Assembly: GCA_964187785.1 (NCBI GenBank)
Contig: OZ076409.1
Coordinates: 35,032,001-35,096,000, forward strand
DNA: 64,000 nucleotides
Origin: Amphiscolops sp. MND2022
Taxonomy: Eukaryota
Direction: 5' to 3'
The notes beneath the pieces are model-generated. The model made no database searches, had not been told where the DNA came from, and saw nothing but the letters and a program-made list of their open reading frames with translations. Below, piece by piece: positions 34,201 to 64,000 of the stretch. Each line of letters opens with the position of its first letter. The stretch's first letter is position 1. The translations under genes and the position numbers were made by a program.

Positions 34201-36867
34201 TCATCAGCCGAAATCCGACAGAAAACGCTGACCCGGAAGAAAATTACGAAGAAGAATTTGTCATCAACGCCATCGCGCAACTTGCAACAATAAATGAACG
34301 CATTGGACGGATTTTTAACCAATCAGAGAACAGCAACACCACAAAGACGGACAACATGCATGATACGCGCAAGCGGACTGGTACGAGCCACTGCAAAACA
34401 AACAACGGCCATTCAAACTCAACACTCACGGCATACAAGACAATTACGGACAAAAACGAACAATTGACAGACCCAATACAACTTGCCAATTCAGAAAAGA
34501 AAACAATGGCAGATAACAACAATAACCGTCAGAATACGGATAAATTTAACCGCGAAAGCCAATTAAAATACCACTGAGGCGCAGACGACGAGATCATGAG
34601 GATTATCAATAGACGGGATAATTCACCAGAAACCAAAGAACTCGTCGAAAGAAGAATCGAGTTAACAAGACCCGGCCATATGCGCCACCAATGGAACAAA
34701 AAAACTAGACAGAAAAATTCTCCTCCCCAGAAGACCGAACGACGGCGACCGAAAAGAAATAAAAAGAATTGACATCCGCCTACGGAGAAAGGAAGAATGC
34801 CGCGACACACACTTGGGAGGCGGATACTTCAAAGATTTCGGTGACGAAATCCCACCAGCAGCAGGATCAACTACCGAAACCAATCCGGACACGATCAGCA
34901 TACAAAAAGCCACATACGATACCGAATCAACAATTTCTTCATCGCCGGAAGAACCCACCACCACGAAAGGTCCAGGATCTTATCCAGCCATCCCCGTACA
35001 AGACTATCGAGACGGACCGATAGAAGAAATAGCCGTCAGATATGTACGGATAAACCGCGTCATTGAAGAACGAGCCCCGAAAAACCGGCAACAGGAACAC
35101 AATATTCGAGCAGCCGAATTAGATTTCATGCTCGACTTGGAAACCCTTATAAAAGAAACATCACCGGACCCAGACCTGATAGAACTGCAATGCTGCCTGG
35201 AGGACAAAAACATGCTAGCAATCCCCGAAGATTACAAACACGTAGCCAAGAGGCTATAACACCGCTGGTGAATAACAATGGTCGATGATCGCATCATTAT
35301 TCCAAAAAGCTTACGCTACGCTGCACTAAACGCTCTACACTTCGGCCACCCAGGAGTTAACAACATGTGCAACGACGCATTAATCTTCTGGTGGCCAAAC
35401 ATGAGAGCCGATATCGAAAAGAAAGCAAAAACGTGCTCCGCCTGCCTAAATGCCGGTAAGAATTTAAAAACCCAACTACCCAATACCGAAAAATCAAAAA
35501 TTGAACCGCCAAAAAACCCAGGGCAGCAAGTTCAAATCGATTTTCCGGGCAACTTAAATAGTAAACACCTAAACTCATCGCTATTTATCTTAGTGGCCAT
35601 TGATAAAAACAGCCGATAGCCGGTAGCGAAAATCTGCAAGAACACTAATCACGATACAGTTATAACATTCCTACGGGAATATATAAACGTATTCGGTGTA
35701 CCGGAAAAAAATCAAATCAGATAGAGGCAGCGCCTTCATCTCGAAGGAATACAAGAAATTTTGCAACGAACAAAATATAATCCGCAAATACGGTACACCA
35801 AATCTACATACTGGAACGGGATTGGTCGAAAGAACCATCCAATCACTGAAGAACTTAATAAAAGCGATTTTAGAAGATACACAAAATCTACGCGAAAGCC
35901 TAAATAAAGCACTATACGTACTACGCTTTACCACACATACTGAAATGAAAAAAAAACCATTCGAACAACATTTTGGACGGAAACCAAGAACCAAACTATC
36001 TAACTTCAAAAATGCTGTTTCAGTTGACTCCAAAGAACTGTCGGTGTATATTACCCGAAATTCCACCGGCGAGATCACGGACCACCTAGTGATGTCTAAG
36101 AAAAAGAACATTGACCCGAAATACCGGAGGGGAATGACGTTCACCCAAAACAAGAAACCGTCAAATACGGTAAGTTGTGGAAAAAACTACAATTATCCTT
36201 TTACTTTCTATGAAAAAGCACACACAAAAAGTTCTCTCGGTAGCAAATTTGAAAACAAACCACAAACTGCAATCTATGGGACAAAACACACGGTTACTAC
36301 CGACAAAAACAAAACCATACACAGAAAACTAATATCTAACCCGATACCATTTCAGAATACCACGACACCAACGAAGAAGATAAATACGAGACAATCGACC
36401 GAACAACCCTCTTGCTCAAAAACAAACGAAGACGGAACTAAAACTTGCAACTACCGTAGAAAAGAACCACCACGACTGGAAAACACTGAAAACAGCTCTG
36501 ATTGGCTAAAGAGAAAAGAACAGCCAAGAAACCAAAAAGGACAATTCACCAGCCCAGAGAAATCAACGGGAAAACCCATGGATTTGGACCTGAGTATAGT
36601 ATCGGACGATGAATTCCAATGCTACAACACAAGCGAAGGAAAACCCGTACATACTAACCTGGACGATGAATTACAACTCCTACCAAAAGAAACGAACCTA
36701 ACCCCAGAGACAGGTATTAAAACTAAAGATACCACAAATGAACAAAACCAATCCGTGAGAAAATCAAAAAGAATACCTCAAGCCAAACAAACCGAAAAAT
36801 TAGGCGGTTTACCTTATCAAACCAAAAATAATAAAAAGAAAACAAATAAACATTGTAGGCAAAGAAA
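31224..36867 (+). mobile_element. Decayed Ty3/Gypsy LTR retrotransposon (5' LTR ~31224-31478, PBS, gag-PR-RT-RH-IN); 3' end lost in assembly gap
   Basis: TG...AACA followed by PBS TGGCGCAGTAAGCAAGA (resembles the complement of a tRNA-Ser 3' end); CNNCQKIGHYARVC knuckle; FITDTGSP protease; WLDDIII RT; TTDASNTGLG...ELELLAVVWG RNase H; HFGHPG...CSAC and SDRGSAF...GLVER integrase; many stops and frameshifts. Confidence 0.92.
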
Positions 36868-37067
36868 NNNNNNNNNNNNNNNNNNNNNNNNNNNNNNNNN
36901 NNNNNNNNNNNNNNNNNNNNNNNNNNNNNNNNNNNNNNNNNNNNNNNNNNNNNNNNNNNNNNNNNNNNNNNNNNNNNNNNNNNNNNNNNNNNNNNNNNNN
37001 NNNNNNNNNNNNNNNNNNNNNNNNNNNNNNNNNNNNNNNNNNNNNNNNNNNNNNNNNNNNNNNNNNN
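36868..37067. other. Assembly gap (200 N)
   Basis: Run of N. Confidence 1.
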
Positions 37068-39076
37068 CTAGCGCACTTTGACATCGAAATGAAGTGGGAC
37101 TCTTGAGCAGATATCAGGTGATAAACAAAGAACAGATCGAGAATTGCGATTAAAGTTTATGTAATCAACTGAATATTACCATTACTTGAGGTAATCAACA
37201 ACTATCAACGCATAAGTAAATTTCAGACGACCGACCAACCAGAAGCCAGTTACACTAACGAACTTGCGTCAAGAAGAAACCAGCCTTATTAGGCAATTCG
37301 GTGCTCTCAATTTTAGGAGCAATTCATCCTTTAAACTAATTACATCTTATCCAGTCAAGTTTTGACCCGGAATTGACAATAACTGATTAGTACAAAGTGA
37401 ATGCGTACACACATTAGAACTTACGACGATGGAAAACGTTTACAAACCGAGAGACTACTTCAAGTCAAATGGTTCATGAGAACGCTACACTCCACCACGC
37501 TAACACCGGGATAAATTTACGCGCATCGATATTGAGTTACATCATAGAAAAAGAGACTGGAAAGAAAAAGATTGGAAAGACAAAATAGAGAAGGTGAAGA
37601 TAAAAAACAAGTCAAACTTGCGCCACTCCCAAACCAAAGTAATCAACAGGTACCAGCAGCCAAATCTAAAAACAAGACAACAAAGCCTTGAGACAAAGTC
37701 CTCCTGTTCAAATGAATCATTAGACGTGCCAGACATCATTTTTAGAAACTATCTGTGGGCGACAGATGTACGGTACAAATAAACGGGTCGTGCGAGTCTC
37801 AAACATGAAAGTAACTAGTGAATGATATGTTCGAAAAAATGTATGACAGACGGAACAAAATCATCGGCAGGCTTGAAAACAATTGCATCAGAAACGACAA
37901 ACGACGGCAAGCTGCTTTAAACACTGGTATTCCTAGACATACAACTGAACACACATCAGGAGAAAATCGCCCATACCAGAAGAGTATGTCCACAAAAAAT
38001 GTTGGTGGTGGTTAACGACGACTGCAATATCATTCTGAAAACTTTGAGGAACAAAGTTATTATGTAATAGCACGAAGGGCATCCCGCAGTAAACAAAATG
38101 ACTTCTGCGGCGAAGCCGCTTCGATCCCGAGGATAAGCAAAAAAACCTTGATTTTCAATGACAGAAAATACCTTCTTGCCCCGGTCGAAAAACTATATCA
38201 AAAAAAAGAAAGTGGATTGCATCGGACCAGTTAAATTAAGGCTCCGAGGATTGTTCCTTCTAATCTCAATCAATCGTTATAGTATGTGGCTTGCAGCATG
38301 CAAATGCAAAAAACAGGCAATCTATTGAAAGAGCAAAATATAACCTTGAGTGGCACGCCACAAACAATCAGCACGGATGAGTTCAGTGGCAATGAGCCCA
38401 GTGTACGGAAGTGGGAGAAAAAAAAGCTCAGAAGAAACAGATTGCAACGATCTCCGGGAGAGAACATGACGGCGAAACGGTGAGAAGAAGCACGATGATC
38501 AGCTGAAGAGAACCCGATGTTCACAGTGGTAGATCAGAACGGTAATTACGAATCTTTGGAAACTGAAATAGAAAACATATACCTAAACGAAAACCACGAA
38601 AATATAACCAGAAAATCAACCAAGAACCGCTAATCCTACGGTACGATACGGAAACCCAATAATATTTAAACTTTTACAGATAATACTGTTGACAAATAAT
38701 ACCAATTGATTCATGAGTCTAAAAAGTAGAGAATAATAATCGGAAAAGGTTCACAGCTCAGACGTAGAAAGAACCCTCTAAGTTAAACATTTTAGTTTAT
38801 TATCTTTGCTGTTGATGAACATAGTAACCCATTTCTTATCATACATTATATGTAAAAGTTTGTCTTTCTATCAATCTCGGTGAAGGAAGAAATATGATGG
38901 AGTTTCATCATTTAATCCGAACCTTTATTTATCTGACATGACAGCTTAGTACCTGTCACAACATTTTAGTTCATCATACGGTTTATCTAATCATTATGTA
39001 CGTTAAAGTCATACTGTCCAGGATAGATTGTTATCAAGCCTTTCCCTTTATCTTTGTTACATGTCAATACCACACA
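37068..39076 (+). mobile_element. Highly decayed Gypsy-like pol remnant with possible 3' LTR (~38895-39076)
   Basis: Fragments such as HEGHPAVNKM (integrase HHCC-like); purine run GAAGGAAGAAA directly before TG...CACA. Confidence 0.4.
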
Positions 39077-44502: not shown

Positions 44503-47500
44503 TTATGAAATCTTTATTGAAATTAGCATCAAACATTTTCTTATTTTCTTCAGTTTATGCAGCGGTCGATTGCAAATTCCTGCAGCGGTTTTCATTTTTA
44601 CAACTCTCACCAACTTGCCTGGCCCGGTGTACACATGTTGGATTTTAGCCAAAGGCCACTGCAGTTGGGAAACATTGTCATCAATTACAAAAACAATATC
44701 ACCAACTTTCAAGTTAGAAGTTTCTAGTTTCCATTTATTTCTTTTTTGTAGGGAAAGTACATATTCTTTGACCCATCTTTTCCAAAAAATGAGAGACCAT
44801 ATTCTGTATTTGTAACCATCTTTTTGTGTGTGAATGTGTACTGTCAGGATTTTTCAAATCTTTAGTAGTCTGGCTCAAAGGTAGATTCGCCAACTTTCCA
44901 CCCAAGCAGAAATGAGCAGGAGTTAAGAAAAACTCGTCCTTTGGATCTTCTGATAATGGGCAGATTGGTCTTGAATTCAAAATCATTTCAATTTGACAAA
45001 GTAGAGTACATAATTTTTCAAAAGAGAGAATTTTGTTTCCCCTAACTTTTCGGAGATGTATCTTTGCGCACTTGATTGCTGATTCCCATGAGCCACCAAA
45101 CGGAGAAGCTCTTGGAGGGATGAAGAACCACGTGATGTGCAAGCCTGCTGCTTCAGCCTCCAAGAAGTCACAGTGTTCATTCCCTAAATCTTTTGCAGGT
45201 CTGCTATTTCAATCCCCGAACGAACAAAACTTTTCCCATTGTCAATATAAAGATTTTTAGGACAACCACTGCGAGAAATGAAACTTCTGATAGTTGCAAT
45301 ACCTGCTGCTGTACTAAGATCAGAGACTAGTTCCAGATGAACTGCTTTACTGGCAAAGCACACAAAAAGCGCCAAGTAGGGTTTTTCAGGAGAATTTGGA
45401 GATTTCCCACAAAGGAAAAGACCAGCAAAGTCTACGTCCTCAAAGGCCTTTAGAGGAGGGTCAACTCCTGCCTTTGGAAGATCTCCCATCAAGAGGAAAA
45501 CTGGCTTCGAGTTGAAGCGATTACAATTGACACAATTCACTATCAGTTTTCGAACCAAATTTGCCAAAGTGGGAATCCAGAAACGAGTTCCAATATGGGC
45601 AATTAATTGGCTAGTCCCACCATGGAGTGTCAGCTGGTGAGAGTTCAATACAACTAGGCGTGCGAGTTGACTTACAATTAGGACTGCGAGTGTTGAGGAT
45701 TTAGTCTTTGAAATTTGCTTTCTGCAGGCAACTTTGCATGTACTAATCTTCCTCCAACACAAAGGAAACCATTATCGAGAAAGGGGTATTATTTACATAT
45801 TTGACTCTTAGGCTTCACTTGTTGTGCAATCTCTAGAGTTCGGATTTCTTCCGAATATCGTTTCTTTTCTTCTTGGCGAATCAAAAGTATGCTTAACTCT
45901 GTTAACTCTGGGGCAGTAATGTAAAAACCACGTTGTTTTTCAATATGTCAATAAAACGGCTAGCGTAAGCAAGAATACGCAGTACTTTCTATAAGGAGTT
46001 AAACCTCGACAAATCAATAACAACTTTTTTGTTATCCCTGTGAGCCACAGAGGTATGAAGACTGGTAATTCCTGTTGTTAGAGTCGACTTTTTCAACTCT
46101 TCACACGTTTCAACAATTGATAATGATTTGGGAAATTCCCCTGTTATTAACCACTTCGGACCAACACACATGATTCCAATTCAATTTGTTTTCACTTTGA
46201 ATTTCACTAATTCTGTTTGAAACAAAAGTTGACCAGCGAGATGATTCTTTTGACAACCAACACAGAACTATTGTTGAATCAGTCCACGCGAATGTTTCTT
46301 CAAGAACAACTGGCGCTTGAATAATAGACTTGATAACAGACTGATAAAACGTAGTGCCTAGCAGAGCAGCACAAAATTCTAATCTCGAGACAGATTGTGT
46401 TTTCACGGGGGCTATATGTTTTTGGCAACAATGAGGGATGACTTTCGCCTGCCATGAGAATCTGTGGCAACAATATAAATACAAGCAGCATAAGCCCCTT
46501 CTGACGCATCACAGAAGAGATGCTACTCAATTTTGTGTGAGAATCCATAAAGCAATACGAATCGTTGCAATTCCACATCCCTTGAAGAGATCATTTTCGA
46601 TCTCCACTTCAAACAATGGTCGGCAAGTTCGGAAGGGAGGTGATCATCCTATGAAATTTTTGCTTCCCAAGCCGTTTGCATTAACTGTTTCAAGAAAAGG
46701 TCACAGGTGATAACCAACCCAATTGGTCGAGAGACTTTGAATTGTCACTGAGCTTTTGCCGTTTGGTCAAAACCTTTGCTTCAAAGTTTTCCTTTTCGAT
46801 GTAGGAAACTTTAAAAACGAAGCGATCTTCGCTGTGTTGCAAACCAATACCGACCAGTTTTATTGTATGGCTCTGTCTAAAAACTCCAAGTTATCATTTG
46901 CTTCGCGGTACTCCGGCGGAAGGTCTAAAAAAATGCTTGAAGCGTTCGAACTCCACTTCCGAAGATCAAATCTTCCTCGTTCAAGAGTTTTTACTAATTG
47001 CTTTTGGAGTATCCGAGCTTAATCGGTCGAATTGGCTCCAGTGAGAATGTTATCAACATAAAAATCTATCAATAAAGCTCTTTCCACCTCAGTGGATACT
47101 TTCGACAAATTGGCACATTCTCGCAAATATCGGATTGAATGATACGATGAGGAAGATACGCCATTGGGAACTCAGGTCTTTCGTAATGTTTCAACCGGAC
47201 CATCAGCTGTAAATTTCCAAAGAAACCGATGAAGTCTCGATCGACTTTATCCAGCTCAACTTGCCGATAGTCTGTCGCTACATCAACTGATAAAGCAATC
47301 TTGAAAAATCGGAATCGTAGGAGAATATTGAACAAATCATCCCGAAGTTTGGGACCAACTAGCAAATAATCATTAGGTGACAAACCAATTGTCGTTTCAG
47401 CACTAGCGTCAAAAACAACACGCAACCTGGTGGTTGTACTATCTTCTTTCAGCACGCAATGATGAGGCAAGTCGAAGTTTGGAGAATTATTAATCTCCCC

Positions 47501-49694
47501 GGGTTGGATCTTCTCCAAGTGACCAAGGTCAATGAATTCTTAAATGAAAACTAAATATTTTCAGAAAAGGTCGACATTAGGGCGCAAAGTCTATTCAAGA
47601 TGGAAAAAACGCTTCATTGCGTTCGCTTTCGAAAAACCTAAACTGTGGGGTCCATCTTTGAATGGCATCTGTACTACAAAACGGCCATCTTCTATGCGTT
47701 TTGAGGTGCTATCGAAGTGCTCTTCACAACGACGCTCATCCAAAGTTAAGTGTCTAGTTTCGGGGACATTTTCTATTTCCCAAAATTTCAAAAGGAGTTG
47801 GTCAGAGTCACAATTTGGAATGGTAGTCAAGTGTGACACAACGTTGTAACTGCCAGACGAATACACAGGACCAGACACAACCCAACCGAATACGTAATCC
47901 CGAATGCACAAGCCGTTATCTTTTATTTTTTTATCAAGCAAAATGTCTTCTTTAACGTCTGCACCTAGCAAGAAATCAAGCTAATTAGGAACGTTGAAAA
48001 GGGATCAGCTAAGTTAAGATTGTTCACATGGCGCATAGTCGAAATGTCGCTTTCTTTATCGGGAATGGTATGAGATGAAGATTAACTTCGATAGTATCAT
48101 TCAACTTCACTGGCAAGGAGCCTCGAGTTTTTTGAGAATGGGCAGGACCCATGGTAGAAACATTTATTTGGCTGCGGTGAGTTGACAGCATGAAGCCTGT
48201 GCAACATCTTCTGTTACAAAACTGGCTTGTGAACCGCAATCTAAGACAGCCCGCAGCTTAATTGCGCCTCCCGATGAATTTCGAATTGTTACAAGAATTG
48301 TAGAAAAAATATTAGTGTTTATTAATAACAGTGTTTGTTTCATTGTCAGCACTAAATTGGCCTGTTGAATTGCTTAGTGGATTCCATTTTGTTGGAAGTT
48401 GAATTCGTACTTGAAGAGGTGTCTTGAAGTCTTTGTAGAGGTGTTTTGATCAGGAAGCTGTTTCTGAGGTCGATGAATCAAGGTGTGATGTTTCACTTTG
48501 CACTCGCGGCGAGGGAACTCAGATGCACACGCATTAGACGAGTGTCCTGATTGGAAGCAGTTTTGAGAGCGTTTTTTGTCTTTACCGAACTTATGTCTAT
48601 CAGCAGGACACATTCCTTTGAATTGTGAACAAGCATAAAGGCGATGATCCTCCTGGCAACATTCACACGATGAGCCTTGAAAAGCATAATTCTGAACCCT
48701 TTTTGTCAGTGTTTGGTTACCTTGGTTGCAGGGAGATGTCACACTTGATTGCGGTGTGACATTTGTGCCACCGGATTCAAGTGCACGGCTTCTTGTGTCA
48801 AGGAATTTTGACAATAATTCCCATGACAATACGTCAGTGCCTAGATTATCCAACTGCCACTGCTTGCATGACTCTGGATCCATCTTGTCGGTCAGAACAA
48901 AAACTAAGATAGCATTCCAATGCTCTACTGGTTGACCAAGTTCAACAAGTGCTCGTAAATGTTCATTGGTATGCTACAAAGTTTCTCAATCCAAGAGCAT
49001 ATTCAGTTTTCAAAACTGGCTGCGACCAAATTGCTTGTAAATGAGCTTGAATGATGCTCCTTTTATTTTCATATCGATCTTTTAACAACGTCAATGCAAA
49101 ATTGTAGTTTGCGTCAGTTATCGAGATTGAACTAATTAATCTCACTGCTTCAGCCTTTACACAGGCTTTCCAAAAGTTCAGCTTTTCTGAATTGGAGAGA
49201 TGGGGATTAGAATCGACGGAGGCCTTGAATAAGTCCAAAAAAACTCATCCAGTCAGTGTATGATCCAATGAATGTTGGTAGCTGACGTTTGGGAAGCTTC
49301 TTCTTACTCGATGTAGCCAAATTTGATGAAGAAGGGTCTCTTGAAAACTCACGCGGAGGTTTATCACGTTATTTTTTATGAATCTCAATCAAAGCAGACA
49401 ACCTAGCAATGGTAACATTAGCAGAAACATGGAACTCCGTTTGCTGTTCCAGTTCATCGGCCAACTCATTTTCTTCAACGTCTATCAATAGTTCAAATTC
49501 TGCAGAGAAATTATGAATCATTGAAATTATATCTTGTAATGTCTTTAGCAAAGCTTCACATTGAAAAAATTTAGTTGGAGTGTCAATAGCAGTGAACGTG
49601 AATTCATTAATTTTTTTGTTCCAATCTAGTGAAAGCACCTTTGCGACCACCTCTGATGCGAGTAAGTTTTCGATGTTCAGTAGCTGGTTGTGTG
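44503..49694 (-). mobile_element. Decayed BEL/Pao LTR retrotransposon, 5' end cut by the Gypsy LTR
   Basis: LPKRQLPTF..DLFKASVDSNPHLSNSEKLNF (gag); Cys/His knuckles; AVLDCGSQASF (PR); LPHHCVLKEDSTTTRLRVVFDASA and FYVDNILTG (RT); RLEFCAALL, WTDSTIVLCW (RNase H); CFASKAVHLELVSDLST, PFGGSWE, LNSRPI (IN); KVGDIVFV..WPLAKI (C-term). Confidence 0.92.
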
Positions 49695-50431
49695 TGTCAC
49701 AGTCCGCTCCCGGACTGGATTGCGGCTGTAGACGAGTAGGATAGGGACGTGGACACGGCTGTACAGCAAAATTGGCAAACAGGTATTTCAGATACTGACT
49801 CAAACTGTAAGTAATGATTAAGATAAACTGTGACTGAAAATGAAAATACGTCTAGTGCGCGCAAATCTAAAAATGAAAATGGAAACAGAGAAACACTTAG
49901 CCAAAATGATTTCACACATTTCCGGCAGGACGTTTCCATAACGCTGAATTAAATATTTTCCACCTGAAAATAAAATTAAAAGATGTCTTAGGAAAAGATC
50001 ATAGACTAAGCTAAACAAGAATACAGGCACAAATTATCTTCAAACAGAGTACATTAGCTGGATCTAAAGTGGAAAAACACTTTGAAATATATGTAGAGAG
50101 ATTACGCCTTGTCAAAAAAAGGCTATTTAATTGCGTTTGAACAGCAATTAAAGTGGTTTAGGACGCACAAATTGCGCAAAGCAAACAATACGGCAGTGAG
50201 AATTTGGCTACATGTATATTTGTTGTCTATAGGACGCAGACAAGTTTTGAAGGTATACTAAGTGACGTCACTGCCTCGTCTATGCATACCAAAATTCATT
50301 CCAATTATCCGCCTATATCAACCACTATGCTAGAAAATCATTCCGATTTACCGCCAGCGTGACGTCACAATACTAGTAACTAGCTGTTAACTTGTCTCGA
50401 GATATGCGTCAACGATGCGGCAAACTTGGCA
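49695..50431 (+). repeat. 5' LTR
   Basis: Matches 63189-63925 at offset 13494; TG...CA; two TGACGTCA motifs (50263, 50360). Confidence 0.9.
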
Positions 50432-51387
50432 GAAGAAAACCTGCCCGGATATCTTTAAATGAGATTTTCACAAGAAGTTAGGCAAAAGTCACAGTTTATA
50501 CTCATGTTCAGTGCGGGTAAAATATATTTTGTACCCAGAAATGTATTTTCATAAGTTTGTACCTTTATCGTCGATTTGGTAAATATGTACATGATGATTG
50601 TTGATGCAATTGTTTTCTTATACAAGTTCTCCTAATGGGCTTGGAAACTGTTGTGCTGATGACGAAATCAAAGCTGTGGAAGCGTTAATTGTTGTTATGC
50701 TATTGGTTTTGTAAAATGTGACGCAATTGGTGCGACAAACCAAGTTTTGTATCTGTTTTTTTCCTTAATTTGTTGGAAATTCATGAATGCTAATTTTATT
50801 CCTATGCTTATATTAATCTTCCGAAATATTCTCCTAGCATCGATTAAATAATCCTAGTCTGGAATTAGTCATTGCATTTTCATCAAGTTGAAATTCAAAA
50901 TCAGGTATTAGTTGTTCACGTCAGCGTCATCTCAGCGTCAATTTCCCGCGAACCCAAGCAGCAAAACAGGGAATTGTTTCCGGTTTGATAGACTGAAGTA
51001 ATATCTACTTCCTGCTCGGGAGGAAGCAAAATGACGCCGGAATGAAATGATATGAATATGTGTGATGACTAATACTAAATGTAGGACATCGTGTCTCAAA
51101 TTTTGTCGAATTGTCGACGCACTTTTGGGATTTTAATGATTTTTTCACCGAAAAAACAGGAAATGACTAATCATTTTAAAGAATTTGGGAATATGTACGT
51201 GATCAAATGATGCTAGGAGGGTATATATAGGAAGTGCAAATTTTCCTAAGGGACTCGGTCTTTTGCCAGTGCTACAACTTAGTTGTTTCAAACTTGTTAT
51301 TCTCAAACTATCCTTATTCCTCTAACCTTGTTGAAAATCAGAAAGAAAAAATTGAATTCTTCAAGAACAAATCTTTCTTCAACAACA

Positions 51388-52823
51388 TGTCTACAACAAG
51401 AAGCCAAAAGAGAAAGAATGCCCAGCGGGAAGCTGATGATAATGTAAGTGAAGGCTTCGTTTCACCGATAAATATGGAAAATTCCCATCCTTTAGACCAA
51501 AACGTAGAATTAGCAGGTCCTTCGATACCCAAGTCCCCAAGAGTAGAAAATAGTTTCCTGGAAAGTATAAGGTCCTCCCTGAAGGAAGACATAACGTCTG
51601 AGATTAAGACCTTTTTGCTCGAGTCGCAAAAGGAAATGTTGAAACTCTTGAAACCTGAAACGATAGAAAACATAAGAGATCATGTATCGGAAGAATTAGA
51701 GAATGAAACGAGAAGTTTCTATACTCCAACGAAAACAGTGCGAATTAATTCTACCCAAAACGAAGATCAGAACATAATTCGTAACATGGTGACAGGAGTT
51801 TTGAGCGACTCCACCAATCAACCCAAGAGAACGAAGAGTATAACTCAGAGCCAACCCCCGTCAAAAGAACGCCCAGCAGTAACGCGAACTTTGTTCGCCC
51901 CAGACCAAAGTAACACCACGATGCTACCCATGCCAAAAGCTCTAACGGCGTCACTCCCAACTTTTGACGGGAAATCCGAAAAATTCGAGCTCTTTGAAGA
52001 TCTCTTTAGGAAAATATCAAAATGTATCCGCACCTTACGGAAATACAAAAGATAAACTACTTCCACTCCCTACTCCGGGGAGACGCCTTACAAGCTTTTT
52101 GCAACATTGGAGACTCGAAGAAAGACTCACTAGACGAGATTATAACGATATTCAAACGACAATTTGGGGACTATCTGTCGATGGCAAAGGCTAGATGCGA
52201 ATGGGACGCGCTAAAATTTGACCCCTCGACACAAAAACTCCACGAAATCCTGGATGTACTACAGAAAACTGCAAAAGAAGCTTTCGGAACAGAGGCACAG
52301 CAGTTCATAGACAAGGCTATATACGCCAAAATGCCAGACCACGTCAAGAAAATACTAAACCGCGCATACCTCGAAGACAAACCCTATAACGATATAGTGC
52401 TTCACCTGGAGAGGGAAATGCGTCTCAATGGGAGCGCCAGACGAGGTAACGTTAGTGCCCTTAAACAAAATCGAACCTGCCCAAACAAAAACTGAACCCA
52501 AACCAGCTGAAACTACCGCTCAAACCACTAAAAAAGGGTACTGCTTCTATTGCAATAAATTTGGACACCATAAAGCTGAATGTCGTAAAATGAAGAGAGA
52601 CAAATGGATGCAAACCCGAAGAAACAACGGACCAACCAACCACAGTGCAGGCAAACCACCCAAATGCGATGCCTGCGGCAAACCCCACAAAACGGAGGAT
52701 TGTTGGAACGGAGCCAATGCTGCCAACGATCCACGACCTAAGCGTCACAACACACAAGAAAGTAAAAGGGACACCTCCGTCACACAATTAACAAACCAAC
52801 CCGATGGTGAATCAAAAAACTAA
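51388..52823 (+). pseudogene. gag: gag (two frameshifts)
   Basis: MSTTRSQKRK start; LPTFDGKSEKFELFEDLF; knuckles CFYCNKFGHHKAEC and CDACGKPHKTEDC; split over ORFs 51234, 52022 and 52428. Confidence 0.85.
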
Positions 52824-52866
52824 TTACGCCGCGCCTGCGCTTTGGGGAAACAGTAGACGCGAGGGC
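52814..52866 (+). promoter_or_regulatory. Programmed -1 ribosomal frameshift signal (gag-pol)
   Basis: A_AAA_AAC in the gag frame just before the gag TAA; the -1 frame is open into ORF 52892; downstream stem CGCGCCTGC/GTAGACGCG whose loop GCTTT can pair with the following AGGGC. Confidence 0.75.
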
Positions 52867-55800
52867 ATATTCTCCACAAGATCCTCCAACAATGTATACC
52901 AACGACACGACAGTAGAGTGCTCCGGCACTCCATCAGAAGCCTGGCTGAGACAACAAGCAATCGCCTCTATGAAACGACACCCGCCACAAGAGGATCAAA
53001 AAACAACACCTCCAAAAGATCAGGATTATAGACACGATTGCCGAATTCACGAAGAACCACCCTCTCAACCAACCATCACCACCAAGGAACCCGCTGCTCA
53101 GACCCAAAGAAACCCAGTTGAAAACGTCCACGACGTCCGCACTTTGTCACAAATGTCTGAGGAAGATACTCACGACCCTACCAGGTCACCTATCTTCCAC
53201 GACAACTTCCCCACCTTCCTCAACTCAATTAAAAAATACGTAACTGAAAAAGATAATAACACTTATATACCACTCCACTCAACAATAGTCCTTAAGAACA
53301 GAAGAAGAATGCTTTACTTGCCACTGGAATTTGGAGAATTAACAATGGACGGCCTTGTCGACTCAGGAGCGTTCATCAATGCCATGTCATGGTCCGATTA
53401 CAACGCCATTAAAATGAACAGCGATAATTGTGTCATAAAGGAGTACCCACAACCTCCTTTCAAGATTGAATGTGCAAACGCACAACTAGAGCAACCTATC
53501 GCCACTGCAGACATTCAATTCAATATCGGAACATACACGTTCACTGACACCTTTGTCATACTATCAAAGACGTCATTCCCCATAATCGGACTCAACTTCA
53601 TGAGAAACCACCAAGCAGTGATAGATACAGCCAATGGGACCATCACCTTCCCTCACGTCGAAATGACATTAGCCATGACAGATAAAAAGAAAAACTGTAA
53701 CCCCAAACCACTCCAAATTATGGCTGAAGGACATCAGACGTTGCCACCACAACAAACAACAACCGTTAATGCAATAGTCATAACCACCAATACAATCGAC
53801 ATCACAGGGGCAGTACAACCGCTCCCGCAGTTCGATGAAACAGCCACCATCATCGTTGCACCAGCACTAGCCACAGCTCACAGCAAACGAATCAACCTCC
53901 GAATAGCCAACTTGACAGATTTCCCGCACACCATAAAAAACCACACCAAATTGGCAGAATTACAAATCCTGAGGCCAGAGGACACCAAACAAATACGACC
54001 TGTAGACGTCGCAACGCTGACCACCTTACAAGATCCAGATAACACGCACATGTATGTAAATGAGCTCATGAAATCCTCAAACGATGAACAAAACGACGAA
54101 AACCTCTGGTTCCCAACACCCGAAAACCCGGGAATTGAAGATGAACACACGCCAATACAAAGACGAATATTAAAAAATCAGAGAACTCATAAAGAAAGAA
54201 CAACTTGATCCCACCAAAGATCCAGAATCAAGGAAAGTGTTCCTCGACATGTTCAAATGGGAAGGATCACAGATTGAGGGAACCGACAAGAAACAGCTGG
54301 AGCAAACGATAGTTGAATACAACGACATCTTTGCGCGTCACAGACTCGACATTGGCATCAATAATAGCTTCAAAGTAAAACTGACGCCAAAAGACGAACG
54401 ACCCATATATACACAGAGCCTGCCAGTGCCGATCAACCTCAAGGAAGACCTAACAGTCGAACTGGCACTCATGCATAGGTATGGCATAATCACGACATTA
54501 CCATTTTCAAAATATGCCAGCCCGATTTTTGCACAACGCAAACCAAACGGTAAACTACGTTTACTGGTCGACCTGCGAAAAATCAACGCACTGATATCTG
54601 ACGATTACATCAACAACAACCACCCAGTCAGCACCCTGTCAGACGCAGCCCAACACTTAGCTGGGAAAAGGCTGTTCTGTAAACTAGATTGCTCTCAAGC
54701 ATACCACTGTCTGCAAATGGCTGACCAGAGATCAATCGAAATGCTGGCATTCAACTTCGCAAGCAGAACGTTTGCATATAAACGCCTGGCACAAGGACTG
54801 AGCAGAGCATTGTCAGCATTCTCTAGCTTCATGAGAGAATACTTGGACAAAGTAATCAAAGCTGACCAGTGCGCGCAATATGTGGACGACATTGGAGTAG
54901 CCGCCAGCTCCGTGACGCAACTGATACGGAACATTCGAGCTGTCTTCGAATGCATCAGACAAGCAGGACTTAAACTATCTATCGACAAATGCCATTTTGG
55001 AGTGACTGAAGTTGAATTCCTTGGAAGAACAATCACTCCGCAAGGAATTGCCCCCCAAGACCATAAAATACAAAAATTCTTGGCAAATGTACGATTTCCG
55101 AAATCAAAAAAACAAGTACAAAGATACATCGGCTTTGTCAATTATTATCGCAACTACACCCCGCGATTATCTGAAAAATTACTCGGATTCTATGAGCTAC
55201 TGAAAGCAGATAAACAGATCAAAATCACTGAAGAACTACTCGACCATTACAAGGCGATCAACGCAGCGCTGTCGCAAGCCTGCGGGTTGGCTCTCAAACA
55301 ACCAATTACAGGACGACAATACGTCCTAATGACGGATGCCAACTTTCGAGCTTCTGGCTATGCATTAATGATCGAAGAGGACAATGACAAAAAAATCAAT
55401 TCCAAAAAGAAAACGTTTGCCCCAGTCGCATTCGGATCGAAAGTATTTTCCCCAGCTCAACTGAAAATGTCTATCTATTGCAAAGAATTCTTGGCAATTT
55501 ATCATGCCTTCCTAGAATACAGTCACATCCTATGGGAAGCAACCCTATCGACCCTAGTAATGACAGACAACAGATCAGTAACAAGATTTTTTCAAACAAA
55601 AGCGATTCCACCCACACTATGGAACGCGTGCGGCTACGTTCTACAATTCAATTTCCATATCATGCACGTAGCAGGAACGCAAAATACTGCGGCAGACTTC
55701 CTCTCAAGAATTGACCTCAATCCCAAGGAACGAGTCGAACTGAAGATCCGCGATGACATCACAATACGACCGATACAAGCCAACCTCCAATCGACAGACG

Positions 55801-57755
55801 TCGCAAATGAGGAACAACTATTTTTCCTTCCCGATGAGACCATCGAAACTGAAGAAGAAATCCTACTACGGAAAGAACAAGCTAGACAAAACGCGCACGA
55901 TGAAGCGCCGGCGAAATTAAAAATGGCCATCCAGGAAACCACCCCAATACCAATAAACAAAGCTTCATATACCTTTGGCGCAATTAAAAAAGATGCACGC
56001 ATTAGAGTCGAACAAGATTCAAACTTAGTCTTCAAGGCAATCAAAAGGAAACTGATTCGCGAAGAATACGACAAACATCTTCTACAAACTGACCCGACAG
56101 CCAAACGTCTTCTAGTCCACGAAAACAGACTAATAGTCAAAGATGGCATCCTAATGCGTAAATATTACGGTAAATGTGGCCAAGTTACGCACCATCAAAT
56201 ACTCATCCCTGAACACTTGATCACAGAACTTCTGAAAGCAATCCACGGACAAATGGGAAAACACCCAGGAATCACAAAAATGATCCAAGAGTGTAGATCT
56301 AAATACTACTACCCAGGACTAGCGAAACGCATCAAACAATGGGTACAACAATGTGAAGACTGCATCAGATATAAACGAATCAGTAACGCTCAAATCAAAC
56401 CAAAAATGATCAACAACACAGAACACGTCCTAGGTCCGGAAGACATCCTAGAGATTGACATACTACCTAACCTACCAAACTCCGCAGGATACCAGAATAT
56501 CGTCACAATGATAGACGTGTTTTCGCGATATCTATTTGCCTACCCAACACAGAACGCCACAGCGAGGACGATTGGCCGATGTTTTATCGATGTCATGACA
56601 AGGCACACATATCTGCCGACATTAATCCTATCGGATAAAGGCTCCCAATTCCGATCAGAAGTTATTGCAGAAATAATGCAAATACTGGAAATACAAATCA
56701 GTCATTTTTCCACTAAACACGCCCAAACAATCGGAATATTGGAAAGAACTCACGCCTCAATCAAAACGGCACTAAAAATATCGACGGGCGAACGACGCTC
56801 AATGTGGCATAATTATGTCCAAATGGCAGTGATGAACTATAACACAACCTATCATGAAACGCTAGGCTGCGAACCTTCCACAGTATTCCATGGACGAACA
56901 CCGTACAATATAGTGGACCTAAAATTGGGCATCAGACCAAAATGGAAAACTTCATCTAATTCCGACCTAGTCGAACAACTACAAAAACAGATAGACGAAG
57001 TGCGTGCGACGGCAAAGGACAATATTATGTTGTCTTATCTCAAATACAAAAAGTACTATGACCGCAAAGCATCTGAAGCCCCACTGAAAATAAACGATTA
57101 TTGCTACATACTCAACCCGAAAGCCGACAGGCAATCGAAAAAATTCGCATTCCAAGACTGCATTTGGACAGGACCGTATGTAGTGATAAAGGTACTTTCA
57201 AATAACAACTATACGATCCGAAAAATCGGCACGAGATACACACAAACGCTACATCGGATTAGAATACGCCCTTACATGCCAGAACAACGACTGCCTGACG
57301 TCACAGTACGGACAAACGAATATCTTCCAGATCCGGACGTCAAAGTGTCGCACAACGAATGGTACGCTGTATCGTGGGAAATGGATTTTGGCAAACAAAT
57401 AGACGAACACGAAGCGACAATAAGTGCAGAAAACAATCAGCAAATAATCACACAAGAAGTGGCGAACACGGATGACGACACGATGACGCAACAATTATCA
57501 GACAATCCAAATGACGACACACATGACGTGGCATCGACGGCTCCAGATTTTTCAAACCTCACTACTGACATAGGGGATAATCCAAATATACGACGTCCCC
57601 CACCCACTGAAAGTCCACCTATTCCCCCAAAATCACCGCCTACAGTTGTCGGTTATAATCCGAGGAAAACAGCAAAATCCAATTTACGACCTAACCCTAA
57701 ACCTAACGCTAATCCTGACTTCAGAAGACTTGACGCTATCACTACGACTCAATAG
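52820..57755 (+). CDS. pol: pol: protease, dUTPase-like spacer, RT, RNase H, integrase (one frameshift at ~54175)
   Basis: LVDSGA (PR); LRLLVDLRKIN, KLDCSQAY, YVDDI (RT); TDANF, CKEFLAI (RH); HGQMGKHPG..CEDC, IDIL, SDKGSQF, GILER (IN), WTGPY. Confidence 0.92.
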
Positions 57756-57994
57756 AATAGCAAATATCAGGAGTCCAGACCGAACCGATCTGACTATTTT
57801 CAATTCATGGCATACTACGACCATTCTTCTTTCTCCTTTGATTGCCAATGTTTTGATTCTCCAAAACAAACTATTTTTAATCAGGAGAATAATATCTAAC
57901 AAACTGATAAGAACAAAATAACAAAAACGCCCGAAGACGCAAAGAAATTATACAAAGAATCAACAAACAGTTTACAAATCAGCAACGGCAAATT

Positions 57995-60900
57995 CTATTG
58001 TTTCTTTGTTGCGGCATCAGAACTCTTCCGAGTGGCCCTCTTCGCAGGCAATTTAGATGAACTAGCAGCTCGCTTCGACTCAGCCTCAGTGTTTTTCTTT
58101 CGACCCAATAATGAGCCAACACTGCTATATAAATGCCCCTTTTCAGGAGTTGTAACGACAGAAGAACCCACAACAGATGATGATGGACTCTCCGAACATG
58201 ACACAGTTGACACGTCGCCCCCATCAGCAGCTAGCATTTTCGCTCCCGCTTATTGGCATGACGCAGAGCAGAACACGACTCCCCCTTCTTGCGACTAAGG
58301 AAGGCTTTAAACAACTCCCGATATCGTGCAACAAATGACTCCTGACCACCGCAGCAGATACGCTCCCAAGGATCATCGGAAGCCAAGTTCATGAAGTCCT
58401 GAGACCCATTTATAGCATTTCGGACGCTATCCATCGTATGCTTCGTAAAGAAGGCTTTCTGCTTGTAATTTGATGACAAAACACAACTCTGCACTCCACG
58501 AATACACGAAGTAACAGTCCAATACGGCACAGCATAACCCGAAAGGTCAATGTCCACGTCAGGGTGTTTCTGCCGAGGTTTCAGGACAACTAGACAGCAC
58601 AATTCAAACACCCGGCACAGGTTTTTGCGGGCCAGAAATGAGTAAACTCCCAGCAGATAAGAGACGACATCAGGAATATTCTCAGCGACCTCATCACTGG
58701 CGGCATGACGACCTCGGACGTCCACAACAAATATACGGAACTCTTCAACAGCTGACTTGCACTCTACGTTCGAAATAACCCCACAACGCTCCAAACGTCA
58801 AGCCAATCGGTTAAACAAGTCAAATAAATGCTTGTCATCCCCTTCCAACAGGAGTTCGGGGCAGAAACAATACAAGCCACTCGTAAATCCAGACGACGCT
58901 GCCTGTTGTGCCAAGATCAGTTCCACAAAACGATCGATAAATTCACGACAACGATCTTGAAAGTCACGACCTTCACTCCCTTTAAATTCACGCAGCACAG
59001 CACCGAAATCAAAGTTTTGCAAGAATTCGGCTGTTGGTATTCCGTCATACTGAGACAACTTGGACACGTCCATATACTCTTCCCATGCATTGACATTTGG
59101 CAGCGACGAAACACGACGACTCCGTGACAACAGACAATACACTAGTTGACATAGTTCCATATTAGCATGGAAGCCATAATCTGCGCGTCTTTGCTGCTGC
59201 TTCTTGAAACAAACTGCGTCTAAACACATCAACTCTACTACATCTGCTTTCAACTAAACGAGACGAAACACAGACGACAACTTACAAAGTTCTAGGACAT
59301 GTTTGAGCAGACCCAGACAGAACACATTCGTATTCTCGGAGAAAACCAGCCAGTCCACACCTCGCATCTGAAACAAACCCAACTACATCAAATCTCACTA
59401 TCAAAACAACCCAACTTTGCCAACCCCAGAAGACCCTAAAGAAGAAAACAAAAAGAGGTAAGGATACAACCAACAAAAGAAAAAAAACACAAAAACTTAC
59501 TCTGTCAGTAGAACTCTTCAGGTGCCGAGCCCCAGTGTAGCGAACATACTCTTTGATGAATTTCCACACAAGAATCAGCTCCGTGACGAAGCCACACAAG
59601 TCAGCAAAGGGTTCCCGCCCAGCGACAACACAACGACGAACGACAGTCACGTCTTCCATCCACGGCTCTTGGAGTGCCCCACGCAGACGTAACAACAAAA
59701 AGTCAACCATTGAAGTCACCTCGAGCATGCAGAAGACCTCTTGATGAGCCTCACGGAAACATTGCAGAAAGGCCTCCTCAGAGAACTCCTGACCCAAAAC
59801 GAACTGCCGACCATCAACTCGATTGTCATTAAGTACGCGCAACAAAGACGCACTCCCTCCTTGACACGACATGGGCAATTGGCACGACACAATACTGTCA
59901 ACCACACGAGACAAACCAGCCAGCTCTGAGTTGGGGACTTTCTGTCCAGACGCCTCAACATGGACACAGACACAAAACAGCTCATGCTTATCCCAAGTCT
60001 GTACATAACAGCTATGCGACGTCCCATCATCTACGAAAAACACACTGTAGTCGCGGAAAGCAGCCACGCGTGCGATCATTGATCGAAGTACACGAGGGAA
60101 TAGGGCTTGGCAGATCAGCGACTAAAACAACAAATTACCAACGCTCAACACACGGAAATCCCAATACCTACAGACTCATTCAAACACAAGAATTTGCTTC
60201 AAGCCAACGATACAACTACGATACACCCCCCCCTACAAAAGCATGATAAAGCATACAAAAATACTAACCAACGACTCTTCTCGACTCCACTTTAGACTAT
60301 ACAGAGGATTTTCCGGCCCCAAAGTAGCACGAAAACAGCCCCACAACTTTCTCAATAAAGTATAGCTGCCACCACTGCGCAGGAGTTCCAGCACACAATT
60401 CACTAATGTCAACAAGGGAACCGATGAATCGACCTGAGTGCAAGCTGGCAACAGATCTTCCGGGAAGCTGAATGCTTCGGCTTTCCCCTTGCAGGGACGA
60501 CTTCGATAATCCTGCAATTGCGCATCTGCCAGCTCCATTGGATCCAGCAGCCGATTGAACACAGGCAAATTATTTTGAACGCGATAAGTGACGTCCAACT
60601 GCCAATGCCGCTTGCCAAAGAAGTGTCGACTAAATTCCAATGAACCACGGGACTCCATTGAAACGTCACGGTGACAAATCATGCAGAAGAAATGTTTGTC
60701 ACAGCCAGTACTGGACCCGCTGACAAACAGCTGATAGATAGGGTTATCGCCTATCATGTCGCGACGAAGACGTTTCCGCATACTGTACACTCGTTTTCGT
60801 TGCCGCTGAGGTGACGAAATCTCCTCTAAACAGGCCTCGACACGACTCACGAGCTCCTAAAACCCTACAAACACAAAACTTCCTTTAATCAAAAGAAACC

Positions 60901-62100
60901 ACGTCGTACGTGGACCACCAGCATGCAACCCCAAGGTCACGACGCGGGATATAAAACTACCCAAAATTTCCCTCAACTCAACCACTAACAGAGAGGATGA
61001 ACAAGACAAAAACTCACAATTGAAACTACTCCAATACAACAATACTCACGAGCAACAAAAGGCTCCACTGTCCGACTCTCCAATTCAGAAGCCACAATCT
61101 CTCCCAATCTAGCAGCCTGCTGTGGCGTACAAGGCAAGGATGCATCAGGAACAGCCTCATCATCAGACGTCTCAAGCTGGAAATCACTCCGCTGCAGTAC
61201 TGTTCCAGTCTTGTCCACCCGACGTTGTTTAGAAGTCGACTGGACCATCGCATCATCACTGGGTGACACCACAGTAACTACAAACACAACACCCAAAGCC
61301 CAAATACAAAGAACGTCACTGTGATACCACCCCACCCAAATACTCATACACTATAAAAACTATCAATCTGCACACAAGAACTTACCATGTTTAATGATAG
61401 GCGATGCAGACTGACTCCCAAATGTTCGCTCAAACCCAGGCAAATATGCAGTAAATCGTGGGGAAGGTGTTTGCTGGGCACAGTTTTTCCTGGCCGGGGG
61501 AGGAGGAGCCTCACCTACGTGAGTCGGTAAAGTACAGACACCGACAATAGGAAACTTGGGTGATGCCAGCCTCGTTGTTTCTTCAGGAGCCCCAGTAACT
61601 TTATCCTCGACTCTGCCAGAAATCAATTTAGACAAAGGGACATCAAGATCATCTTGCGGTGACGCAGGTGGATCGAGCATCCCAGAAACAGTCTCTAAAG
61701 GAACAATCGTACCACTCTCTAGGGGTATAACCCCAACGGAAGAAAGATCAGCTAGTAGTGGAACAGTTTCAAGACCAGAAAGAGTGTGAAGGGAGGTAGG
61801 AGTGACGTGAGCAGCACCCTCTAGGGAAGAAACAAGAACCGCTCCTGGCACTAATACGAATTCCCACATTCGACGCGTCAGAAAAACTAAGCTATGAAAA
61901 TACAAAACAGAAAAGGCCTATCTGTCAAAAGTATATTTCATGAAAGCTTAAAGGAAAGTAGGGATAGCAAACTAACCAGGTGCCGGCCGGACAACTCGAT
62001 TATCAGTCTCACTGTCACGAATATCTCCTTCCGAAAATGCAAACTGCGTCTCGTTACCACTCACAGCTACTGAATCAATACGACCACGGGACGTAGACAT
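57995..62100 (-). CDS. Spliced antisense accessory gene inside the Gypsy element, unknown function, C2H2 zinc finger; this copy mildly disrupted
   Basis: Chain of minus-strand ORFs joined by GT-AG introns 61976-61851, 61385-61278, 61049-60985 and 60268-60122 with compatible phases; further gtaagt donors at 59500 and 59285; CMICHRDVSMESRGSLEFSRHFFGKRH finger. Confidence 0.7.
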
Positions 62101-62149
62101 TGCAAAGCGATGAATCTGAAAAGTCAGAGGTGAAAACAACAACCGAAAA

Positions 62150-62385
62150 TCTGATGTCATCAAAACGGTGACAAAACATAAAGTTGGCCAATAACCAACG
62201 AAAATGGCGTCGACAAAAAGGTTATCAGGGTTAAGAAATTAATCCTATTTCCTAAAATGACGTCATCAAAACGGTGACAATATCAGAAGTTAGCTAAGCT
62301 AACGAAATGACGTCAGCATAACGTTGACAAATTTGGCTAGATGAATTATTTTAATTTGCAGCCAACAAAAACTCGACGTCGTCAT
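62150..62385. promoter_or_regulatory. Candidate bidirectional promoter with repeated CRE-like motifs
   Basis: TGACGTCA at 62258 and 62308 and TGATGTCA at 62152, within a ~23-bp unit repeated three times, lying between divergent ATGs at 62100 (-) and 62534 (+). Confidence 0.4.
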
Positions 62386-62533
62386 AGCGACAACAATAAA
62401 GTCTGAAAAGGATTAAAATGATTGTTTAACCAATCCCGGGAGGGATTTATCCCGATATTCGCCTTAATCCCAAATAATCCTAAATTCATTGTGGAACAAA
62501 CAAAACGAAGAAATCAGTTGATAAAGAAAGAAG

Positions 62534-63292
62534 ATGAGCAATCTCCTTGACATTTTTGAATTAATCGACATATCATCGTCAAGTGAGGAAGAAGGTGAAA
62601 TCGAAAGAGCATCCACCCCGCTACCAAGAGACAGTCAGGTGAACCCCAGGATAATCATTGAAATTCCCCACTCGTCAGCAGAGGCGACGGCAGACGATGA
62701 AGAATACCTCGAGTTGTCAATAGACTCATTGGAAACTGACTGTAAAAGAATAAAGCTGAGCGATTCTTATACCAGTTTTGAATCGGTGGAATCTGGGGAG
62801 TATCCTCATTCAACTGACTCTGAAGAAGCACCAGCCGACTCCCCTGAAAGCCATGATGAACAACAAAAAGGGGAAGATAACAGCAGCCTAAATTCTGGAG
62901 TGTTCGTTGTGGAAGGACATTACGCCCACAGCTCTAAATCAGTAACGAGCACGACCGTTGCGGACTATTTAGAATATGTTGCCCGAGAGGATGCAAGTTC
63001 TTTTTTCGTCACTCCCCCAGGACCATTGAGAAGGGTAAATCTTCGACCGATAAGCCCACTGAACGACCTAGAAGAAAGAGGGACAGCAGCAACAAGTTCT
63101 AAAAGGAATAACAACTACGAACAGTTCCAGCATCAGCTGTTCCAGTTCTGCCAACCCGGGAGAGCTTTTCGCCCCATGACAGTGGCCCTGTCACAGTCCG
63201 CTCCCGGACTGGATTGCGGCTGTAGACGAGTAGGATACGGACGTGGACACGGCTGTACAGCAAAATTGGCAAACAGGTATTTCAGATACTGA
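62534..63292 (+). CDS. Acidic Ser/Glu-rich 252-aa accessory ORF ending inside the 3' LTR
   Basis: Uninterrupted ATG-started ORF; its last ~34 codons lie within the LTR. Confidence 0.55.
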   Translation: MSNLLDIFELIDISSSSEEEGEIERASTPLPRDSQVNPRIIIEIPHSSAEATADDEEYLELSIDSLETDCKRIKLSDSYTSFESVESGEYPHSTDSEEAPADSPESHDEQQKGEDNSSLNSGVFVVEGHYAHSSKSVTSTTVADYLEYVAREDASSFFVTPPGPLRRVNLRPISPLNDLEERGTAATSSKRNNNYEQFQHQLFQFCQPGRAFRPMTVALSQSAPGLDCGCRRVGYGRGHGCTAKLANRYFRY

Positions 63293-63925
63293 CTCAAACT
63301 GTAAGTAATGATTAAGATAAACTGTGACTGAAAATGAAAATACGTCTAGTGCGCGCAAATCTAAAAATGAAAATGGAAACAGAGAAACACTTAGCCAAAA
63401 TGATTTCACACATTTCCGGTAGGACGTTTCCATAACGCTGAATTAAATATTTTCCACCTGAAAATAAAATTAAAAGATGTCTTAGGAAAAGATCATAGAC
63501 TAAGCTAAACAAGAATACAGGCACAAATTATCTTCAAACAGAGTACATTAGCTGGATCTAAAGTGGAAAAACACTTTGAAATATATGTAGAGAGATTACG
63601 CCTTGTCAAAAAAAGGATATTTAATTGCGTTTGAACAGCAATTAAAGTGGTTTAGGACGCACAAATTGCGCAAAGCAAACAATACGGCAGTGAGAATTTG
63701 GCTACATGTATATTTGTTGTCTATAGGACGCAGACAAGTTTTGAAGGTATACTAAGTGACGTCACTGCCTCGTCTATGCATACCAAAACTCATTCCAATT
63801 ATCCGACTATATCAACCACTATGCTAGAAAATCATTCCGATTTACCGCCAGCGTGACGTCACAATACTAGTAACTAGCTGTTAACTTGTCTCGAGATATG
63901 CGTCAACGATGCGGCAAACTTGGCA
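63189..63925 (+). repeat. 3' LTR
   Basis: Matches 49695-50431. Confidence 0.9.
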
Positions 63926-64000
63926 GAGTTTAGTATTGCCAAGAAAATGCGTCACAGTGACGACGACAAGTTTATGAAATTAGTTGGAAATAGGCAAATC

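Follow-up and report, generated by a model that had tools for sequence, protein, structure and literature searches.

A seven-exon antisense gene with a predicted hAT transposase fold in a Ty3/Gypsy retrotransposon lineage of Amphiscolops sp.

The stretch of DNA analysed here (the window) comprises 64,000 nucleotides (nt) of contig OZ076409.1 from Amphiscolops sp. MND2022 (assembly GCA_964187785.1, positions 35,032,001 to 35,096,000 of the forward strand). It contains a long terminal repeat (LTR) retrotransposon of the Ty3/Gypsy type in which a gene of seven coding exons lies downstream of pol and on the opposite strand. A preliminary description, made from the sequence alone, had placed an intron-containing antisense gene inside a retrotransposon, and the LTR pair together with matches to pol domains identifies this host as an LTR retrotransposon. 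Components of the element and of the antisense gene are as follows, in window coordinates (ORF, open reading frame; UTR, untranslated region; aa, amino acids):

49695..51786, plus strand: 5' LTR with TG...CA ends, a 5-nt target-site duplication before it and a TGG-starting, primer-binding-site-like sequence after it
51231..54208, plus strand: gag and protease region, in four overlapping frames in the window copy
54174..57755, plus strand: pol (reverse transcriptase, RNase H, integrase), open, 1193 aa, Ty3/Gypsy type
62534..63292, plus strand: second accessory ORF, 252 aa, divergent from the antisense gene and conserved across subfamilies
63189..64000, continuing beyond the window end to the equivalent of 65554, plus strand: 3' LTR, TG...CA, with the identical 5-nt duplication behind it
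62149..62330, no strand assigned: four 26-nt repeats, spaced 53, 53 and 50 nt, with CRE-like cores
62116..62199, minus strand: likely 5' UTR intron; acceptor AG in 69/70 copies, donor-like GT at 62199 in 57/70
61977..62115, minus strand: exon 1, with ATG at 62100 and a short 5' UTR piece before it
61851..61976, minus strand: intron 1, 126 nt, phase 1
61386..61850, minus strand: exon 2, Pro/Ser/Thr-rich, weakly constrained, of variable length
61278..61385, minus strand: intron 2, 108 nt, phase 1
61050..61277, minus strand: exon 3, acidic, Ser/Pro/Thr-rich
60865..61049, minus strand: intron 3, 185 nt, phase 1, holding a rejected exon (60984-60910)
60269..60864, minus strand: exon 4, BED-like C2H2 zinc finger, then helices; stop at 60859
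60122..60268, minus strand: intron 4, 147 nt, phase 0
59501..60121, minus strand: exon 5, predicted RNase H-like sheet without conserved catalytic Asp, start of helical insertion domain, invariant Trp
59368..59500, minus strand: intron 5, 133 nt, phase 0
59286..59367, minus strand: exon 6, 82 nt in 9/9 subfamily representatives
59220..59285, minus strand: intron 6, 66 nt, phase 1 (66-150 nt in most other copies)
57995..59219, minus strand: exon 7, covering the predicted last part of the insertion domain, the hAT C-terminal region and a tail rich in Ser and Lys; stop at 58800, frame break near 58235

Profiles for RVT_1, RT_RNaseH, Integrase_H2C2 and rve match pol above cut-off, giving the order protease, reverse transcriptase, RNase H, integrase after gag; the gag and protease matches are weak (DUF1759, E 2e-4; Asp_protease, E 1e-3) and fall below the curated cut-off. 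The interval from pol to the 3' LTR spans 5.4 kb and contains both the antisense gene and the divergent sense ORF. Aligned with each other, the LTRs show 34 mismatches in 2097 bases (1.6%). About 270 nt present in the 3' LTR and in other copies are absent from the 5' LTR (50431-50433 versus 63927-64197), and outside this gap the two are 98-99% identical. No polypurine tract occurs directly 5' of the 3' LTR in the window copy (63150-63188), and no tRNA gene was found in the 64-kb window.

Copies were sought in the 1.07-Gb genome. A DNA search returned 45 matches (551 candidates, 40 scored), and a protein search with exon 4 gave at least 74% identity in 150/150 scored matches, from 7245 first-look candidates, such first-look totals not being copy numbers. 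From 79 loci fetched, ten were excluded (nine copies with rearrangements or deletions, and the locus that continues the window itself), and the remaining 69 were aligned with the window to give 70 rows, divided into 28 close and 42 diverged copies. These represent some ten subfamilies, the farthest having 61-65% DNA identity to the window. In 99/105 loci the antisense gene lies on the strand opposite pol and downstream of it, a figure that expresses linkage rather than the share of elements carrying the gene, the loci having been selected as carriers; three of the other six are otherwise arranged and three have no pol in the stretch examined. Among loci picked by exon-4 similarity (L040-L079), subfamilies whose antisense proteins are about 60% identical share about 90% identity in pol, with a synonymous difference (pS) in pol of 0.24-0.69 between pairs, a disparity that raises the possibility of module exchange by recombination.

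Splice sites were judged column by column, as retention of GT or AG across the 70-row alignment. GT follows 61977, 61386, 61050, 60269, 59501 and 59286 in 69, 70, 69, 70, 69 and 68 of the 70 copies, respectively, and AG precedes exons 4-7 in 68, 69, 67 and 67 of them. Within the diverged copies these donors and acceptors are kept in 95-100%, above the background set by other intronic GT and AG dinucleotides, which are kept in a mean of 27% (13/145 reach 80%). Acceptors of exons 2 and 3 are present in 27/28 and 28/28 close copies and, in the same columns, in 2/42 and 29/42 diverged copies, only part of which have an in-phase AG close by; these two acceptors thus shift in diverged subfamilies, and the two junctions are secure only for the close family. 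On these checks the donors stand as first drawn, along with exons 62100-61977, 61850-61386, 61277-61050 and 60121-59501, the T-rich acceptors (45% T in introns versus 30% in exons), and a product of about 1,100 aa (the coding length is 3341 nt).

Elsewhere the map had to be redrawn. The exon proposed at 60984-60910 has its AG in 27/28 close but only 1/42 diverged copies, and its GT in 18/28 and 3/42. Acceptors placed at 60856 (12/28 close, 22/42 diverged), 59435 (6/28, 1/42) and 59253 (20/28, 17/42) are replaced by conserved ones preceding 60864 (27/28, 41/42), 59367 (26/28, 41/42) and 59219 (27/28, 40/42). With the corrected acceptors the gene has seven coding exons rather than eight (62100-61977, 61850-61386, 61277-61050, 60864-60269, 60121-59501, 59367-59286 and 59219-57995), intron phases are 1, 1, 1, 0, 0, 1, and all six junctions join without the indels once thought necessary at the 60.9-kb and 59.3-59.4-kb junctions. 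Exons 4-6 keep their length modulo 3 in 9/9 subfamily representatives, and the introns vary widely. Using only their own GT and AG sites, 22/70 copies (a set in which L040-L079 had been selected for similarity in exon 4) are open from ATG to stop, 20 of them encoding 1079-1120 aa. The window copy itself is defective, with the in-frame stop at 58800 and the frame shift near 58235 that had already been noted and a further premature stop, at 60859, that had been missed.

Upstream of the ATG, trans-splicing was considered for the conserved acceptor and set aside, the conserved donor-like site at 62199 making a cis-spliced UTR intron the simpler explanation. Intron 1 is 77% conserved, as against 45-47% in the other introns, and contains, at 61872, a palindromic 8-mer that occurs once in the window and in 94/105 loci, and also in intron 1 of part of a sister lineage described below; it is a possible cis element.

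Selection was gauged from the proportions of nonsynonymous and synonymous differences (pN/pS) over 36 pairs of nine subfamily representatives, yielding 0.41, 0.75, 0.67, 0.17, 0.31, 0.35 and 0.35 for exons 1-7. The corresponding values in exons 4-7 are 0.96-2.47 for four control frames and 0.31-0.48 for a fifth, the sense shadow frame, which shares the same third positions. The preliminary description had suggested that the gene be judged by codon-position constraint and splice-site conservation among copies; in addition to the splice-site retention given above, identity at codon positions 1, 2 and 3 in exons 4-7 is 0.68-0.81, 0.76-0.88 and 0.40-0.45, compared with 0.45-0.47 in introns 2-6. 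Among 25 close copies, variants present in at least three copies show an omega of 0.12 and no stops, whereas singletons show an omega of 0.65 and 12 stops (Fisher p 8e-29). Such a contrast would be expected of a gene that is under selection while its lineage replicates and that decays once a copy has inserted. In the nine representatives pol is tighter (pN/pS 0.07), and the antisense gene diverges much faster (pN 0.13-0.27, versus 0.04 for pol). From this evidence we have little doubt that the antisense gene is a genuine spliced coding gene.

A further check on the exon map is independent of splice-site columns. Searching with a profile of exon 7 retrieved 690 unnamed proteins, including a single 890-aa ORF that spans exons 4-7, and a search from this ORF yielded 35 long relatives. 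One of these, P0193, is encoded at 100% identity in the genome of the window, at loci that are themselves LTR elements with pol on the opposite strand and 55-62% identical to the window's pol. Elements of this sister lineage (L080, 4577-8556; L082-L092 and L105-L107) are about 15.7 kb long, and three of the P0193 type have LTR pairs 99.8-99.9% identical. At junction 4, uninterrupted relatives have 15 residues across in 32/32 rows, as does the spliced model; across junctions 5 and 6 they have 60-61 residues in 31/34 rows, where the corrected model predicts 61 and the earlier one 94. The uninterrupted proteins are, as aligned, colinear with the spliced reading.

The two lineages differ in their introns. 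At L080, the one sister locus mapped, four upstream phase-1 introns precede a single 2597-nt exon; introns 4-6 are missing in 10/10 sister-lineage loci, and intron 4 with GT..AG is present in 17/17 further loci of the window's lineage. A quick integrase tree of 32/36 loci of this family, omitting L019, L029, L095 and L106 (no single match long enough), separates 26 intron-rich from six intron-poor rows (SH-aLRT 100). The tree is unrooted, two outgroups being too long, and introns 4-6 were either gained in the window's lineage or lost in its sister. If they were lost, the polarity of a spliced antisense mRNA, which is that of the minus-strand DNA template, could have allowed template switching during plus-strand synthesis to delete introns cleanly. 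Relatives P0103 and P0104 find best matches in this genome of only about 50% and 38-40%, respectively, and similar proteins are thus likely to occur in other genomes. In P0104, P0118, P0124, P0143 and P0073, none with a close match here, similarity ends at a common point in the exon-7 region, suggesting a further intron in another lineage.

As to the identity of the product, the predicted structure of P0193 is a confident fold in which an RNase H-like domain is split by a helical insertion domain and followed by a hAT C-terminal region; structure comparison gave the Hermes transposase (PDB 8EDG) as best match, at 10% identity. The insertion domain holds an invariant Trp (W368). A zinc finger of the form CxxC...H...H is nearly invariant, aligns to the finger of resident hATs at a probability of 0.2%, and has no zf-BED match in Pfam. 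Sequence comparisons were otherwise silent: searches of Pfam, of PDB sequences and of profiles against profiles found no hAT match (Dimer_Tnp_hAT, DUF4371 and kin), Pfam searches of the antisense protein found no Transposase_28 (PF04195), and a first atlas search gave weak zinc-finger leads only. With exon 5 as the sole query no relative turned up among longer proteins, and its fold prediction, made without an alignment, was poor; a homodimer prediction for residues 55-345, likewise without use of an alignment, scored 0.00. An env-like identity was not borne out, the gene being antisense rather than sense and its best match in a viral library being a hAT protein. We regard derivation from a hAT transposase as very probable.

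With similar confidence we hold that the product is not a working transposase. Neither the DDE catalytic triad nor the CxxH motif was found in the alignments, in which positions were mapped by secondary structure and motif. A DxW motif in 16/35 relatives was considered as the first catalytic position and rejected because it sits in a helix (positions 398 and 431). The genome is rich in ordinary hAT elements (150/150 scored matches over cut-off), and loci L114, L115 and L126-L134 carry ordinary transposase ORFs of the hAT type, 600-700 aa long and with their motifs intact. The antisense protein has no sequence similarity to resident hAT bodies, and none of the resident hAT ORFs is detectably its donor.

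Between the two divergent genes, the interval 62116-62530 is conserved across subfamilies. The four 26-nt repeats within it may form part of a bidirectional internal promoter, as candidate binding sites. The 252-aa ORF encodes an acidic, Ser/Pro-rich protein with SP/TP motifs, whose Cys/His-rich end extends into the first 100 nt of the LTR; it has a pN/pS of 0.39, stays open for at least 220 aa in 48/70 copies, and has no Pfam match.

We consider it moderately probable that this Ty3/Gypsy lineage maintains an antisense gene of six introns whose product, a hAT transposase devoid of catalytic residues, serves as an accessory regulator, likely by binding DNA. Judging from orientation, genomic RNA begun in the 5' LTR would read the gene backwards, so that its introns would not be splicing substrates and would survive reverse transcription. 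Retroelements also keep introns in unspliced genomic RNA, and the preliminary claim that introns survive only because they are antisense was too strong, although antisense orientation is the simplest reason here. Conservation suggests that transcription of the gene in integrated copies starts from an internal promoter at about 62200-62500, common to the 252-aa ORF, and that the host spliceosome removes the introns. To that extent the gene is host-style, as had been proposed, but the predicted origin of its product is a hAT DNA transposase and not an ordinary cellular gene. The 1,100-aa protein would comprise a likely disordered acidic, Ser/Pro-rich N-terminus, a BED-like finger, a basic tail and, between them, a body that by prediction resembles Hermes but lacks DDE. 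It would most likely bind short repeats in the LTR or the internal promoter of its own family, and, acting in trans from one copy on others, may support the family's transcription or protect it against silencing. The BED fingers of Hermes are described as binding short repeats in subterminal position, and domesticated proteins of hAT origin as mostly retaining DNA binding while losing catalysis (PMC10368747). That the protein regulates expression of its own element we rate at roughly even chances. The fuller scenario, in which a dead hAT enzyme was domesticated as an antisense gene needed for spread, works in trans as the family's own sequence-specific activator or against its silencing, and acquired or shed three introns while inside a retroelement, we put forward tentatively, a little below that. 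The earlier reading is supported overall, with its exon map corrected and its product given a predicted identity.

The main rival is a role at integration, in which the dead transposase would bind the ends of element cDNA or anchor the integration complex at selected places in chromatin or DNA. In favour of such a role, holding DNA ends and target DNA is what a transposase scaffold is made for, the whole body (sheet, insertion domain with the invariant Trp, C-terminal region) is kept rather than the finger alone, the tail is basic, and nuclear entry of the pre-integration complex has been raised for plant antisense ORFs (PMC7264820). The element's own integrase is, however, under the stronger constraint, and the long acidic, Ser/Pro-rich N-terminus appears more like that of a transcription factor; we think such a role unlikely. 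More doubtful still is a decoy or poison, soaking up host anti-transposon factors or acting as a dominant negative on hAT transposases or competing subfamilies. Divergence much faster than that of pol and the abundance of ordinary hAT elements would suit it, but the protein lacks similarity to resident hAT bodies and a retrotransposon has no clear gain from blocking them.

A hAT DNA transposon nested in the element, active or decaying and functionless for the retrotransposon, would explain the predicted fold, and nested insertions are common in the window. This reading is largely refuted, and we give it very little credence: the combination of terminal inverted repeats (TIRs) and 8-bp target duplication that marks a hAT transposon was not found around the gene (of seven short inverted pairs in 57600-63300 of the window copy, none of at least 12 nt brackets it), DDE is missing, the gene holds the same place and orientation in lineages with pol 55% identical, and variants common to several copies are under purifying selection. 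Equally slight is the chance that the antisense RNA is what matters (by pairing with genomic RNA, as a source of small RNA or as a decoy), the protein being secondary or not made; the non-coding antisense RNAs with several exons reported from Arabidopsis Copia elements (bioRxiv 10.1101/2024.04.02.587720) and the nucleotide-level conservation of intron 1 speak for it, and strong constraint on codons, nearly saturated third positions and a confidently predicted fold against it.

Other parts of the window contain a tandem block (9348-15441) of units of about 2.4-2.7 kb at 92-100% identity, and nested near-perfect palindromes (22007-22261) with 110-nt arms at 99% and hairpins of 47 and 59 nt without spacer. 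Other decayed retroelements (26817-28711, 32138-37081 and 44735-49851) include a LINE-type endonuclease and reverse transcriptase, another Gypsy element and, on the minus strand, the remnant of a further one that apparently received the insertion of the element studied here.

Antisense accessory genes are of a known kind. Plant Ty3/Gypsy elements carry antisense ORFs termed aORF-3R (gene23 of maize Grande, rice RIRE2, and the TRP28 ORFs of Retand; PMC7264820, PMC11963269) that resemble the present gene in position between pol and the 3' LTR, orientation and family-wide conservation. In Grande, gene23 possesses an upstream promoter of its own and its product is nuclear, and a DNA-binding regulatory role has been proposed for aORF-3R (PMC7264820, PMC11963269). 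They are presented as plain ORFs, the word "intron" occurring 0 times in the main texts of these two papers, and in PMC7264820, a review, their origin and function are given as unknown, with no support for origin from other transposable elements. The gene described here departs from them in its six coding introns, its product of about 1,100 aa and the full hAT transposase fold predicted for that product; TRP28 is unmatched. HBZ of HTLV-1 and APH-2 of HTLV-2 are likewise antisense coding genes inside LTR retroelements, spliced and regulating their element's own transcription, features proposed here for the present gene; they are retroviral, start in the 3' LTR and encode a bZIP protein of about 206 aa (PMC3185765), as distinct from an apparently internal promoter, seven coding exons and a predicted transposase fold. 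The antisense RNAs of Arabidopsis Ty1/Copia elements share antisense-strand introns and conservation across related families, but are non-coding and start in the 3' LTR (bioRxiv 10.1101/2024.04.02.587720). We found no precedent for an LTR retrotransposon whose antisense gene contains introns and derives from a hAT transposase, although subscription papers, Repbase entries or supplements may hold one; the accessible text of PMC6431247, PMC8220671, PMC9289625, PMC11728184 and PMC9911081 contained nothing matching. What appears undescribed is the set of six coding introns under selection and the DNA transposase origin.

A coding gene with several introns would thereby have stayed under selection in a retroelement over many cycles of reverse transcription, and since exactly three introns, at clean codon positions, set the sister lineages apart, gain and loss could be tested across hundreds of paralogous elements, the family offering, if this is true, a many-copy natural experiment in intron turnover. 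Annotation of transposable elements by ORFs would miss such genes, which may thus be commoner than recorded. The zinc finger and the candidate repeats adjoining the gene's own start provide a concrete, testable function. With hAT transposases the product shares, as predicted, a zinc finger, RNase H-like sheet, helical insertion domain and hAT C-terminal region in the same order, and it differs from them in lacking DDE, CxxH and TIRs and in its 10% identity to Hermes. Like many domesticated ZBED-type proteins it would have lost catalysis and kept a predicted finger (PMC10368747, PMC4763223); unlike them, it is kept by a many-copy retrotransposon and not by the host at one locus. The prediction gives an antisense accessory gene a traceable origin, in which one class of mobile element co-opts the enzyme of another, as hosts have done with ZBED genes.
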